Assembly: GCF_963921235.1 (NCBI RefSeq) | Contig: NC_086097.1 | Span: 61,940,001-62,004,000 of the forward strand | Reading direction: 5' to 3' | Length of the DNA: 64,000 nucleotides | Source of the DNA: Mobula hypostoma | Taxonomy: Eukaryota | Part shown: one piece after another, positions 52,877 through 59,799 of the stretch | Layout of the letters: every line of letters begins with the position of its first letter | How positions within the stretch are numbered: position 1 is the stretch's first letter | Notes under the pieces: generated by a model | Seen by the model: only the letters and a program-made list of their open reading frames with translations | Told to the model about the DNA's origin: nothing | Databases searched by the model: none | Made by a program: the position numbers and the translations under genes

Positions 52877-53714
52877 CTGAATAAAAGCAAGGAGAAAAAG
52901 CGACACTGCCTCAGGACAGAAAAGAAAAAGAAAATGAGGCCTACATTAGGTGCATGCTTTCACTCAAGCTTATAAGCCCTGCAGCTCCTTCGAGGATATA
53001 TTTAAGGAGGTATACTTAAACCAGCAATGCTTTCATAAAGAAACACTAAAGGGTTTTTTTTTCTTGGTCCTACTGCACCCAATTGTGCCTCTAACTTGGC
53101 ATGTTACTTTTGAAGGAACTTTACATTAAAAGGCTTGAGGATTTTGAGTGCAGCATAAAGGTATTAAACTGTTTACCTGTGTCAATGTCCAATTAAGTGC
53201 TGATATGTTGAATAAAGCTATAGAGGTGCAGTCAGATTTGGTAAATGAAGAAGCTCATTTTATCCACTTTGAAATTGATGCCAGGATCAGATTAGCGAGC
53301 TATAATTGAATGACAGACCAGACTTGAGGCATCCTATAGTCCATTCCAGTTCCTGCTTCTTATATTCTTATGCTCACCTAGACAAGTGGAAAAAAAACGC
53401 AGAAGTAAAGCACAAGTGCCATCTTATGAACCAATCCTTCCCAAAATCTATTTTTTTTATCACTATTTCTCAGCTTCTCTTGAGACTGGTGTAATTGGGA
53501 TATTGGACAGCAAGAACTGCTTACTGCTTGAATGCTGTAACTACCTGAAAAACTATTCATGGTAAAAAAAAAAGAAAGAAGTGTCTGACTGCAGGGGGAA
53601 ATGAACCATGAGGAGATTGAGACTTTGGGGCAGAATTAAAGTTAGCACAAGGAAACCTAATTATGGAGCATGTTGATGGACAACCCTTTGTGACCTGCAT
53701 GACTCATCAATTTG

Positions 53715-53852
53715 TCAGCCCCTGGACTGAGGGGGAGGGGCAAGGCGAAATCACCTTTATACAGGACTCTGTGGGAGGAGCCACAGGGGCAGTCAGCAGA
53801 GGGGGGTGTCCAGACAGGTAACCCAGTTACAACATATATATGGTTTACCACA
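53715..53852 (-). repeat. 3' LTR, distal about 90 bp missing
   Basis: Direct repeat of about 57945-58078, immediately after the PPT. Confidence 0.9.
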
Positions 53853-56800
53853 TTCACCCCTCGTTTTTAAAAAAGAGTCCCGCGGGGTGAAGTGACTGAC
53901 AATATTTAAAACAAGTATATTTACAGGTCAAGTCTATCAGGCGGTCGAGTCCGTCGCTGTGATCTACGTAGCACCGGCGGTGATTGCACAGGCGATGGCG
54001 GTTATGCTGGCTCCGGCCTGACTTGATGTGCCAGCACGTTAGGCGTTGGTAATCCCTCGTGCGTGTGTGTCGCGCCTGGTATGGGAGTGTCGTGTGGTGT
54101 CTGTGTAGGGCTTGGAGTGTGTGGTGTCTCATGGGTACATATATCAGTGGGTACGGGATCAATAGTCACCATGGAGTGTTCAGGGTAGGGGCCTGGAGCT
54201 CCTGCGGGTGCCAGGTCACAGATGGAGACCGTGTCCTCCCACCCATCAGGTAAAACAATGTAGGCATACTGGGGGTTCGCATGAAGTAAGTGAACCCTCT
54301 CGACCATCGGGGAGTATTTATTGCTCCTCACATGTTTCCGGAGCAACACTGGCTCCGGGGACATTAGCCAAGTTGGTAGGGTGGTCCCAGTGGTCGACTT
54401 CCTGGGAAAAGAAAAGAGTCGCTCATGAGGGGTGGCATTGGTGGCTGTGCATAACAGGGAGCGGGATGGAGTGGAGTGCCTCAGGAAGGACCTCCTGCCA
54501 GCGGGAGACCGGCAGTCCCTTTGACCTGAGGGCTAAGAGTGTGGCTTTCCACACCGTGCCATTCTCCTTCTCCACCTGTCCATTCCCCCGGGGATTACAG
54601 CTCGTGGTCCTACTAGTTGCAATTCCCCTAGCCAGTAGGTATTGGCGCAGCTCGTCACTCATAAACGAGGACCCTCTGTCACTGTGGATATAGCATGGGT
54701 ATCCGAACAGAGTGAAGAGCTTGTGCAGGGCTTTTATAACTGACGTGGTAGTGGTGTCGGGGCAGGGGATGGCGAAGGGGAACCACGAGTACTCGTCGAT
54801 AACGTTAAGAAAGTACACATTGCAGGCAGTGGAGGGAAGGGAGCTCTTAAAGTCAACACTCAGTTGCTCAAAGAGGCGGGTGGCCTTGATGAGTTGTGCC
54901 TTTTCGGGTCGGTAGAAGTGCGGTTTGCACTCTGCGCAGACTTGGCAGTCCCTGGTCATCATCCTGATCTCCTCAAGGGAGTAAGGCAGATTCCAGGCTT
55001 TCATGAAGTGGAAAAGCCGGGTGACTCCCGGGTGGCAAAGATCTACATGTAGGGCGTATAGCCAGTCGATCTGCCTGCTGGCGCACGTTCCCCAGGATAG
55101 GGCATCGGAGGGCTCGTTGAGCTTCCCAGGCCTGTACATGATGTCAGAGTTGTAGGTGGAGAGTTCAATTCTCCACCTCAGAATTTTATCATTTTTGATT
55201 TTGCTCCGCTGTTGTTTATTAAACATGAATGCGACTGAGCGCTGGTCAGTTTGCAGGGTAAACCTTTTGCCGGCAAGATAGTGCCTCCAGTGCCTAATAG
55301 CTACCACTATGGCCTGTGCCTCTTTCTTTACTGCAGAGTGCTGAATTTCAGGGCTTTGAAGGGTACGGGAGAAGAACGCCACTGGTCTTCCTGCCTGGTT
55401 GAGGGTAGCAGCCAGTGCAAAGTCGGAGGTGTCACTCTCCACTTGGAAGGGAATGGCCTCATCCACCGCATGCATTGCTGCTTTGGCAATGTCCCCTTTA
55501 ATGCTGCTGAAGGCTGCTCGGGCCTTGGCTGAGAGGGGGAATGTGGTGGACATGACCAGGGGGCGGGCCTTGTCTGCATAGTTAGAGACCCATCGGGCTT
55601 AATATGAAAAGAAGCCCAGGCACCTCTTGAGGGCTCTGAGGGTGTTGGGAAGAGGAAGATCCAACAGGGGGTGCATACGGTCGGGGTCAGGGCCAATGAC
55701 TCCGCTCTCCACGACACACCCAAGGATAGCAAGTCGGGTGGTCCCGAATACACACTTGTCCTTGATATAGGTGAGGTTGAAAGATTTGGCCGCTTGGAGA
55801 AATTTTTGGAGGTTGTTGTCGTGATCCTGCTGGTTGTGACCACAGATGGTGATGTTATCCAGATATGGGAATGTGGCCTTCAGTTGGCACTGGTCCACCA
55901 TTCGGTCCATTGCCCTCTGGAAGACAGATACACCATTCGTGACACCGAAGGGGACGCGCAGGAATTGATAAAGCCTGCCGTCCACCTCAAAGGCGGTGTA
56001 AGGGCAGTCTCTCCGGTGGATGGGGAGCTTATGGTAAGCGGATTTTAGGTCTATGGTCGAGTACACCTTGTACTGTGCTATCTATTGACCATATCCGTGA
56101 TGCGGGGTAGAGGGTACGCGTCGAGCTGCGTGAACCTATTGATGGTCTGGCTATAGTCCATGACCATCCTATTCTTCTCCCCGTTCCGAACAACCACCAC
56201 CTGCGCCCTCCAAGGATTTGTGCTTACCTCAATGACCCCCTCCCTGAGCAGCCGCTGCACCTCCGACTTAATGAAAGCTCTGTCCCCCGCGCTGTACCTC
56301 CTGCTTTTAGTTGCCACAGGTTTACAGTCGGGGGTCAGGTTGGCGAACAGCGGTGGGGGAGAGATCCTGAGGGTGGAGAGGCCGCAAGTGGCGTTGGTAG
56401 TGCGGCAGTTGGCATGGTGTTGGATGTGCGGGTTGGTGTGTGTGTGTGTGGTCAGTAGCGGGGTATGTGACGTATCCCTACAAAACTGGGGATTTACGAC
56501 AGTATTGGTGGGAGGGGCCCATCGTACTTCATTGTCATGCTTTTCAGGTGGCTCTGGAAGTCGAGCCCCCATGGCACAGGGGCACACAGTTGAGGCATGA
56601 CCAGTAACGTAAAGTCTCGATATTCTGTGCCCTGCACTACTGGCGTTGCTACACAACCCCCCCGGATGTCTATTGTATGTGACCCGGAAACCATGGCGAC
56701 CCTCTGACTTACCGGCCGTATCACGAGTCTGCAATGCTGCACCGTGTCCGGGTGGATAAAACTCTCCGCGCTGCCTGTGTCAAACAGGCAGCTTGTCCTG

Positions 56801-57849
56801 CGCCCCTCCACCAGGATGTCCATCATTGACCTTGCAAGCTGGTGGGAAGAGCTTTGGTCGAGGGTCACGGAGGCCAGGGTTGAGTCGCTGTCTTGGTCCA
56901 GCACGGTGGGGTGCCCTGTGAGCACCTGTTGGTCATAGGCGGTGGGAAGGGGCGCCGACCAAGATGACCACCCCCATGTCTCGCATGTGGTGGCGGCGTG
57001 CAGGGAAGATGGCGACCCCCCGTGTCTCTCACGGGGTGGCGGTGTGCAGGGAAGATGGCAGCAGGCACGATGGTGACCCCCACATCTTGCTTGATCCCGC
57101 TCGTGGTTTGGACTTACAGACCTTGGCGAAGTGGCCCTTCTTTCCGCAACTGGAGCAGGTAGCTTATCGAGATGGGCAGCATTTCCGGGGGTGCTTCTCC
57201 AGTCCGCAGAAGTGGCACTTCATAGCAGCCGAGGTCAATTCGGCGGCGGGTTGCGGGGTCTGCGGCGCCAACGAGCCGTCGGGGGATCACGTGCCTGGAG
57301 AGTCTCGGAGTTATGCACAGCAGCCTCCAGCATGTTGGCCAGCTCAATCGCCAAACTTAAGGTAAGATCGGCTCTTTCCAACAGCCGCTGGCATACATAC
57401 ACTGACCTGGTCCTCATTACAAAGGCGTCCCTCACTAGGAGTTCTGCATGTTGCGCCGCCGTCAGCTCCTGGCAATTGCAGGCTCTCACGAGTGTCCGTA
57501 GGGCCTGGACGAACTCAGCACTTGATTCCCCGGGCCGTTGTTGCCATGTTGCTGAGTGATGCCGAGCATAGATGCTGTTTATCGGCTGCAGGTATTGGCC
57601 TTTGAGGGCGCTCATCGCGCCGTCATAGCTCGGCTGGTCTCTGATCAGCGAATAGACCCGTGGGCTTACCCTGGAGAGTAGAACTCTGCACTTCGCTACA
57701 GGGTGGGTCGCTCTAATCTCCTCTAGGTACGCTTCGAAGCAAGCCAGCCAGAGTTCAAAAACGTTTCCAAATTCAGGCCTTTGTGGATCAAGGTCTAACT
57801 TGTCGGGTCTCAGAGTGTTCCATGCATTAAAATTTACAGTGAATAAAAT

Positions 57850-58078
57850 TGAAGCACCTTCAATAACTCCAAAAGACTGAAGTTGGGTAAGATACTGAAA
57901 GGCTTTTATTCGCTGTACAATACGACCTCCATGCTGAGTGTCTTCCCCTGGACTGAAGGGGAAGGGCAAGGCGAAATCACCTTTATACAGGATTCTTTGG
58001 GAAGAGCCACAGGGGCAGTTAGCAGAGGGGCGTGTCCAGACAGTTAACCCAGTTACAACATATATATGGTTTACCACA
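57850..58078 (-). repeat. 5' LTR (TG...CA, about 229 bp)
   Basis: Matches 53719-53852 with 8 mismatches in 134 bp; TATAAA at 57982-57987; AATAAA at 57905-57910; inner boundary inferred. Confidence 0.85.
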
Positions 58079-58113
58079 GAAGGGTTGATGATACATACAA
58101 TTTTTTCTCTATT

Positions 58114-58116
<3 letters not shown>

Positions 58117-58148
<32 letters not shown>

Positions 58149-58152
58149 GTCT

Positions 58153-58187
<35 letters not shown>
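58117..58187. repeat. (CT)n microsatellite
   Basis: Seen directly. Confidence 0.97.
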
Positions 58188-59799
58188 TGCTTCTATCTGC
58201 AGACACATTACAGGATGAGAACCAGCCTCGCATACCAAATGAGGGTAAAAACACGGAAAGTCTGCCAAGGTCATGATTTCACATTTCAGGCAAACAAAAA
58301 GCCCACAGCTTCCTGAGACTGCTGCTTCAGAGCTGAGAGCAGAAAGTATATTTTCTTTATCCCTACTTGTTAAAAGATAACATTGTTGAAATCACACCCA
58401 AGATGAATGTTATGGGATTAAAAGAATGAAAGAAGAGCACTGCGTTTATAGAATCATTAGATTTTACAATGCAAATGTCAGTCGTTTAACCTGTTTGGCC
58501 ATCAATTTAATTGTACCTTTAAACAGAGAGGAGAAGATTGCTTGAACCTCTTTAGATTATCCTACGGTCCATAGATGGCTGCAGCCAGGACATTATTATC
58601 ATTTACACAAGCACCATTGCTGCTTAATGCCTAGATGCCTGCTTGTGGCATGGAGGGTGGCTAAGTTATTTCCATGACCACTGAAGTACTTGGGTACCTT
58701 AGATGTTAGAAGAGCTGAATACTTATGAATAAATATCCAGCACCTCTGAAACATGGTCTGGAGTGAAAAGGAAAACACTTATCAACACAAAATGTCTGAA
58801 GAATTTCAGAGGGGGCAGCAAGCCATCAGACAACACTTTGCAAGTTCTAGCTCAGACAGTGAGAACACTTTCTCTGTCATCTCACACACAAGGAGCAGTG
58901 GAAGAAGTAGGAAAGAATATTAATATTAAAGACATAGCCAGGACATGACGCAATACTGAATCTCATTTGATGACCTCACCAGAACTGCCGATGTATACAA
59001 ATTATTCTTTTCCATCTCCAGCCTCACATTAATTCATTCATTTGGTATCTTGCACCATTCTATAAGTATTTCAGTTCAAATCACTCCATTTCCTTTTCCT
59101 TCAAGCTCAAGTACGCACCAGTGTAACACTTCCTCACACCACCTGTCTTCCAAACCGCATGCCACATATTCAACCACAACAGGGACTTTCATTGGACATC
59201 ACACAAAGCTCACTACCACACATCCTCTCGGTTAAGAACCTAACACAGTGGAAACACATCAATGCAGCGTGGCTTATGCTCTGTAAGTATGTAACGGTAT
59301 GTCAGTACCATTGTCACCTGTTTAGCCAACCAGCAAAATTATTTGAGTAAACAAGTGTACAAGTTCATCTGGACATTCAGTGTCTTCATTAACATTGTGT
59401 TGCGTGAAATGCCTGAGTCTTGGCCGATGCCAAAGAGGAGACTGCAGACTATTTGTACATAGGAAGAAAGAGGCTATTCATCTGAAGGATCAGCTCCGAC
59501 AATAGAGGCCACTCCTGCTCCTTCACCCTCTCCTCTTCTACTTCCTCTTCCATCAAAGTTATTCAATTCTACCACCTGCATTTTCTCCAATTGTCCTTCT
59601 CTTCCACTTCCTTCATCTTTCCTTCAGCTTTTCCTCCTCTAGTTTTCCCTCCACATACAGCTACTTATTTTTTATTCCTTCACCCTAATCTTCTCCATTT
59701 TTATGTCTTTCTATTCTTCCACCTTTACCTTCTCCATCTGCTATTACTATGTTATCCTCCTTCTGGGTCTTTTTTCTCCTTTGGAGGTTTTTTTAGGAC

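Follow-up and report, generated by a model that had tools for sequence, protein, structure and literature searches.

To our knowledge, self-priming of reverse transcription has been demonstrated only in the Tf-type elements of fission yeasts, and it has been inferred for their chromoviral relatives and for some plant lineages. The experimentally studied Ty3/gypsy elements of this kind are Tf1 and Tf2, from Schizosaccharomyces pombe, and Tj1, from S. japonicus. In Tf1, the primer is made of the first 11 nt of the mRNA, which pair with the primer-binding site (PBS), RNase H cutting between bases 11 and 12 (accessible portion of PMC7175516), and Tj1 is described as self-priming in a similar way (accessible portion of PMC4600332). 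The vertebrate Tf1/sushi group (sushi-ichi and others) is likewise said to self-prime, and the same is predicted for the plant elements Tcn1 (Gypsy) and TAR (Copia), in which the first bases after the 5' long terminal repeat (LTR) share at least 10 nt of complementarity with a place in the 5' LTR (accessible portion of PMC6317226). The element described here lies on the minus strand of a stretch of 64,000 nucleotides from the ray Mobula hypostoma (NC_086097.1, positions 61,940,001 to 62,004,000; hereafter the window, to whose numbering all coordinates refer), where it reads as a decayed member of a compact Ty3/gypsy family that has many copies and no chromodomain. The explanation proposed in full, namely that this compact, chromodomain-less element primes minus-strand synthesis with its own RNA by the steps set out below, has in our estimate a probability of about 0.6, and self-priming as such appears very probable in this lineage.

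As in Tf1, Tf2 and Tj1, there is no tRNA PBS in the ray element, the PBS that follows the LTR complements a segment of the element's own 5' R region, and these are separated by a structured U5 region. The end of the 5' LTR (229 nt, TGTGG...CTTCA, 57850..58078), whose start matches that of the 3' LTR, had been placed at ...GCTTCA (57850) by inference in the sequence-only reading, the 3' LTR of the window being truncated; it is now fixed by the 3' LTRs of other copies, since the BLAST match to the window LTR stops exactly at 57850 in 17 of 29 own-genome 3'-LTR loci and within a few bases of the LTR end (query 277-292) in 26 of them, with unrelated flanks beyond it in the alignment. Next come an A (57849) and, instead of TGG, the candidate PBS TTTTATTCACTGTA (57835..57848), an arrangement found in all 30 copies with a 5' LTR, where an A and a TTTTATTC-like sequence, and no TGG, follow ...CTTCA. 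The gag start codon (57821..57823) is located 26 nt past the LTR end, as had been supposed from the window and as other copies and the homologue gag N-termini, which begin M..LRP..LD.DP, now support; by comparison with other copies, the window copy has a 2-nt deletion directly behind this ATG, and it bears an additional, mutational ATG at 57827-57825. The 26-nt space before gag holds, as far as can be read from it, no other candidate priming site, and a search of the window for tRNA genes with ARAGORN returned none.

The candidate PBS pairs over 13 of its 14 nt with TACAGCGAATAAAA (57917-57904), which lies inside the LTR and includes the poly(A) signal AATAAA (57905..57910), as had already been noticed in the window alone. 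This stretch is the core of the proposed self-primer segment TGTACAGCGAATAAAA (57904..57919), whose 3' end is followed by GCC. The sole mismatch in the window is a G>A change at a CpG and is read as CpG decay; the ancestral form of the PBS is TTTTATTCGCTGTA, which reaches 16 nt in copies having CTGTACA. Pairing is complete (14/14) in 8 of the 30 copies with a 5' LTR, L004 and L017 included despite an alignment gap, several own-genome copies pair over 16 nt (TGTACAGCGAATAAAA with TTTTATTCGCTGTACA), and most of the departures from pairing among the 30 are CpG transitions. By hand arithmetic, a reverse complement of at least 13/14 anywhere in the 229-nt LTR has a chance of about 216 x 43 / 4^14 = 3.5e-5. 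When the leader of copy L006 is folded (minimum free energy (MFE) -54.1 kcal/mol, z -4.74), the PBS/partner duplex is present in the MFE structure, and the perfect 6-bp hairpin TTGAAG-gtg-CTTCAA reported from the window is indeed found at the LTR end (57849..57863).

The two 14-mers also change together. Within the ray genome, subfamilies A and B differ by a matched double change, TACAGCG pairing with CGCTGTA in all 30 copies of A, and TACTGCG with CGCAGTA in the five full elements of B (5/5), where A>T is matched by T>A (in full, TTACTGCGAATAAAA in the LTR and TTTTATTCGCAGTAA after it). Element L061 has, in its two LTRs alike, an additional G>T / C>A pair, L065 shows a CA/TG pair with the change in both LTRs, and the U5-end hairpin of L061 and L062 reads TTGATG...CATCAA, which is again a compensatory change.

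The same is seen at a larger evolutionary distance. The longest natural open reading frame (ORF) of the family (612 aa, L062) has named homologues at 76-83% identity in two rays and others at about 55-62% in a sea anemone, in nematodes (whipworms) and in a damselfly, most of its homologues being polyproteins of about 1100-1300 aa, and a profile scan of metagenome contigs provided 80 relative loci at 39-62% amino-acid identity. In the relatives with definable LTR pairs, 13-17 nt directly after the LTR (offset 0-2) are complementary, without a mismatch, to a segment inside the LTR, the distance from the end of this segment to that of the LTR being 40-56 nt (77 nt in one), and none of 500 internal control windows per element equalled the observed match length in this LTR-anchored test. 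A boundary-free test, in which the 50 nt before the gag ATG were compared with the 340 nt upstream against 200 coding-window controls, gave a duplex exceeding all 200 controls in 25 of 33 relative loci (at least 11 nt long in 24 of these), with the partner segment at a distance of 40-87 nt (42-68 nt in 22). The duplex sequences differ among the relatives (24 distinct ones listed) and share a common layout: LTR ...CA, an A, and then a PBS starting TTTAA, TTTTA or TTTAT. The last bases of the partner are ATTAAA, AATAAA(A) or GTTAAA, with GCC(T) or ACC(T) next in most relatives; it ends in AAA in 17 of the 24 distinct duplexes listed, often as ATTAAA or AATAAA. In a plain MAFFT alignment of 21 leaders (A3), 97.3% of the cells of the 14-pair helix are paired, a percentage inflated by the selection of these leaders for an already-found perfect duplex and to be discounted to that extent. 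That selection leaves unexplained the co-variation of homologous columns: 10 of the 14 pairs show double-sided changes (68 cells), the covariation score is 0.646 versus 0.154 in shuffles (0/500 shuffles as high), and slid registers are only 29-49% paired. Covariation, the comparison to which the sequence-only reading had pointed, is thus found between subfamilies of one genome as well as across the relatives from metagenomes. Since the PBS tracks each element's own LTR, a shared host tRNA cannot serve, and with the pairing both conserved and covarying, the parsimonious reading of a PBS that is not of the tRNA type and complements the element's own AATAAA-bearing LTR segment is self-priming.

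Three further observations concern the leaders and contigs of these relatives. A small hairpin, GCCTA...TAGGC or ACCTA...TAGGT, adjoins the duplex on the 3' side of the partner, with matching changes in many relatives (L066-L136), and may be a counterpart of the U5-IR stem-loop. In one metagenome relative (L083:130-260) the U5 end and the PBS occur twice in tandem ahead of gag. The terminal repeats of short metagenome contigs were considered as transcript ends and rejected, being assembly overlaps or circular permutations.

A different kind of evidence comes from rearranged copies. One contig from four sequencing runs (whose contigs, fragmentary and of uncertain kind, show no starts, ends or strand) joins 57849 to 57904 on opposite strands, and the genome was therefore searched for that junction with a query composed of the U5 end, 14 free bases and the sequence preceding the partner in reverse complement, allowing up to 2 mismatches. 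There are 58 genomic matches (control 12), 57 of them with a PBS-like middle, which amounts to about 6% of the normal LTR-PBS-leader junctions of this genome (878 matches, control 31). The structures behind them are inverted LTR dimers, present in about 57 genomic copies and joined exactly at the PBS/partner duplex: a full LTR, the A and the PBS are followed by an inverted LTR 1-161, running from the partner back to the U3 terminus, so that both termini are U3 ends (L146, L148, L149, L150 and L152 are examples in the ray's own genome). Subfamily B has its own dimers, bearing the subfamily-B variant. All five complete solo dimers (389-426 bp, with 86-99% identity between their arms) lie between identical 5-bp repeats, which equal in length the target duplication at a full element and show that the dimers integrated as units. 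The simplest path to them would be fold-back or annealing of strong-stop DNA: plus-strand strong-stop DNA ending in the PBS, whether or not it also bears a copy of the leader, would anneal to the partner in its own or another molecule's R, and extension would then run up to the 5' end, at the U3 terminus, and yield an inverted, integration-competent LTR dimer. As fossils in the DNA, the dimers show that the duplex forms and is extended in replication complexes. None were found among the metagenome loci, of which the sample was small.

The sequence-only reading had also placed the partner about 70 nt past the TATA and probably away from the cap site, and both the promoter and the dimers now favour this. 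In U3, a putatively functional TATAAA (57982..57987) is followed by an initiator-like TTCAGTC (57951..57957); the A at 57954 within TCAGTCC, 33 nt past the T of TATAAA, is the probable transcription start, and this site had been recorded before the dimers were examined. Among the 50 junction-bearing copies examined for arm ends (10 long loci and 40 stretches of 109 nt), the inverted arm runs on in 44 and is truncated in 6, three of which (L147, L181 and L185) end at the complement of 57953/57954. From this point the L147 arm continues into sense pol with a CGGAC microhomology, the L185 arm into antisense gag and the L181 arm into unrelated DNA; in the other truncated copies, the arm ends 5 nt further (L161), at an internal deletion (L157) or switches to inverted U5 (L187). 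The end point shared by L147, L181 and L185 would be explained if synthesis ran off the 5' end of RNA templates. The evidence thus leans towards the initiator (57954) as the 5' end of the RNA, which would place the primer segment about 36 nt further downstream, inside the leader, at approximately +36 to +51. A pattern search for poly(A)-tailed retrocopies that would give the R/U5 border (AATAAAAGCCTTTCAG + 0-24 nt + A12) produced 0 matches.

Starting from the observed complementarity, its covariation and the DNA fossils joined at the duplex, the remaining steps of replication can be proposed as follows. The R segment UGUACAGCGAAUAAAA of the 5' leader (57919-57904) would fold back onto the 14-16 nt just past the LTR (PBS, 57848-57835) and close a structured R/U5 domain; the element's RNase H would then nick the RNA after ...AAAA and before GCC, by analogy with Tf1, where a cut at the end of the duplex is likewise needed to provide the 3' end of the primer; the new 3'-OH would be extended over the A, U5 and the short rest of R; and the resulting strong-stop DNA would transfer to the 3' R. 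With a start at 57954, the self-primer would be a 51-nt capped fragment, unless a second cut trims it or the replicative RNAs start elsewhere. There are two probable departures from Tf1, the internal position of the primer and its end in a poly(A) hexamer: unlike in Tf1, where the primer is the very beginning of the mRNA (accessible portion of PMC7175516), the duplex of the ray element spans 14-16 nt and lies probably about 36 nt from the RNA start. The ray element also differs from Tf1, Tf2 and Tj1 in lacking a chromodomain, in its animal host, in its 229-nt LTR and in its length of about 4.4 kb. The vertebrate Tf1/sushi elements are likewise vertebrate Gypsy elements said to self-prime, but they are chromoviruses, and Tcn1 and TAR, which share the signature, belong to another clade or superfamily and to other hosts and are predictions, no fossil by-products being reported for them in the accessible portion of the source (PMC6317226). 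Tentatively, all this could amount to a mode of self-priming that is distinct and belongs to an old Gypsy lineage found throughout metazoans: an internal R primer would end in the poly(A) hexamer, a single duplex would both make the primer and hide the 5' AAUAAA, and the dimers would record priming and the transcription start. As part of that tentative picture, the roughly 36 extra 5' nucleotides of the primer would often give the plus-strand strong-stop DNA a 50-nt inverted copy of R, and a 50-nt inverted repeat generated from a 51-nt primer would explain frequent snap-back.

What else could account for these observations? A self-priming of the classical Tf1 type would have transcripts starting at about 57919-57917 and the first 14-16 nt of the RNA as primer, the TATA and initiator 36 nt upstream being either unused or the source of another transcript that does not replicate, comparable to the alternative starts of Tf2. 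If the primer were the very 5' end of the RNA, the plus-strand strong-stop DNA would stop precisely at the PBS, which is what the second transfer requires; no TATA is seen at a constant distance upstream of the partner in the relatives, which also weighs against the internal primer; the TATAAA position reads GAATAAA in 4 of the 5 subfamily-B elements; and of the alternative starts of Tf2, one alone supports self-priming (accessible portion of PMC5341516). However, TATAAA and TCAGTCC are spaced by 33 nt, and in the three independent rearranged copies the inverted leader continues 36 nt past the primer segment and stops at the initiator, so RNAs with that 5' end would have served as templates. 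We regard this classical scheme as unlikely, albeit deserving of serious attention. Considerably less credit is given to priming by the 3' copy of R, in which the partner in the 3' R of the same or of a co-packaged RNA would anneal to the PBS, be cut and prime. The partner would indeed be present at both RNA ends if transcription starts at 57954, and a U3-carrying primer would produce copies of the L151 type, in which the internal sequence, the polypurine tract (PPT) and LTR(1-175) run straight into an inverted LTR; yet fold-back or trans annealing of plus-strand strong-stop DNA would yield the same structures and explain as well why arms end at the U3 terminus, and nothing in the L151-type copies, compatible as they are, demands a 3' copy.

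Another improbable option, rated marginally below priming from the 3' R, is that the duplex is purely structural (occlusion of the 5' AAUAAA, packaging or dimerisation) and that some host RNA is the primer. The 5' poly(A) signal of HIV-1 is occluded by RNA structure. Masking is plausible in the ray element too, because the AAUAAA is part of the duplex, which needs a PBS next to the LTR and can therefore arise at the 5' end alone. It cannot be the conserved reason for the duplex, however, since the hexamer of the partner is non-canonical in several relatives, in which a separate AATAAA lies further downstream (e.g., L072, with GTTAAA). Moreover, the 26 nt between the LTR and the gag ATG offer a host RNA no other site, and the PBS varies among relatives while tracking their own LTRs, which a shared host primer would not permit. 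The latter observation bears equally on priming by a tRNA or a tRNA fragment at a non-canonical PBS: half-tRNA primers are known in Copia lineages (accessible portion of PMC6317226), but no TGG follows the LTR and the site is A/T-rich and varies among relatives together with the LTR, which makes this the least credible of the options and very nearly negligible.

There are also points that weigh against self-priming by an internal R segment. The dimers speak of annealing and extension at the DNA level, from which the priming step on RNA would have to be extrapolated. The start site is deduced from three copies, and a run-off could be simulated by polymerase pausing at the loop of a hairpin that CCCCC and GGGGG may form; the start, the poly(A) site and the cleavage are all deductions from the genome. 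With a 51-nt primer, the plus-strand strong-stop DNA would end up with a 3' flap that should hinder the second transfer, which argues for a start at the primer itself or for a second cut. Covariation would follow from primer use, because reverse transcription copies the primer into the PBS, and it is therefore no measure of selection. Finally, a significant duplex is absent in 8 of the 33 relative loci of the boundary-free test, some of which resemble decayed versions.

The remaining features of the window copy are those of a Ty3/gypsy (Metaviridae) element. The coding region (gag-PR-RT-RH-IN, for protease, reverse transcriptase, RNase H and integrase; 53869..57820) is decayed, with several frameshifts, as judged from its ORFs and from Pfam, which finds Asp protease, RVT_1, RT_RNaseH and rve in this order; a PPT (AAAAACGAGGGGTGAA, 53853..53868) adjoins the truncated 3' LTR, of which only the first 140 nt are present (53713..53852; 93% identity to the 5' LTR). 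The order PR-RT-RH-IN, the TG...CA LTRs, the PPT and the 5-bp target duplication are all characteristic of the group, and the RT-RNase H region matches the Ty3 Gag-Pol structures 7q5b (E 1.6e-49) and 4ol8 (E 6.7e-44), Ty3 being the closest solved structure. Ty3, from Saccharomyces cerevisiae, has the same domain order as the ray element and uses a tRNA primer, in which the ray element differs from it. The absence of a chromodomain, claimed from the window, holds in other copies: at E up to 0.1, Pfam gives only rve in the open ORFs of the integrase C-terminus of L063 and L065, and Chromo (PF00385) is absent from the precomputed Pfam lists of the 120 homologues listed. Since no chromodomain was found, the lineage lacks the chromovirus-defining feature that was looked for. 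The host genome (3.48 Gb) holds the family in abundance: 2729 candidate matches to the LTR plus leader and 1975 to the PPT/LTR junction came up at first inspection (40 of each were scored), and the five full-length elements retrieved measure 4.36-4.56 kb.

Some observations stand apart from the priming question. The motif C of the reverse transcriptase reads FPYLDNITICG in the window (ORF 55599-56081, region 55770-55800), that is, YLDN and not YxDD, and among 79 motif-bearing homologues Y[LMVI]DN is found in 57 and Y[LM]DD in 22; an Asn replacing the second catalytic Asp is unexpected, given an amplification to thousands of copies. In the gag/protease region, two 43-nt tandem units, 88% alike and 46 nt apart, lie at 56971-57059, and a long (GA)n/(AGAGAC)n microsatellite (58101-58230), through which the ORF scan passes, is located immediately upstream of the 5' LTR.

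What these data describe is a known principle, self-priming, in a lineage for which we found no description of it; the feature is real, and the ray family leaves an unusual trace of it in the genome, the inverted dimers. In the literature searched, which did not extend to key subscription papers and may thus miss a prior mention, nothing was found on self-priming in this lineage, on a primer that overlaps the poly(A) signal or on target-duplication-flanked inverted LTR dimers. The same priming solution, with abundant covariation, is found across a chromodomain-less animal Gypsy lineage, which would make tRNA-independent priming broader in animals than assumed, and self-priming elements would escape the silencing by tRNA fragments directed at the PBS. 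If the primer overlaps the poly(A) signal and sits inside the leader, the Tf1 model, with a single cut at base 11, needs extension. Arising naturally as by-products, the target-duplication-flanked dimers reveal, from the genome sequence alone, both the primer-template duplex and the 5' end of the RNA, and they offer a way to study priming in organisms without genetics.

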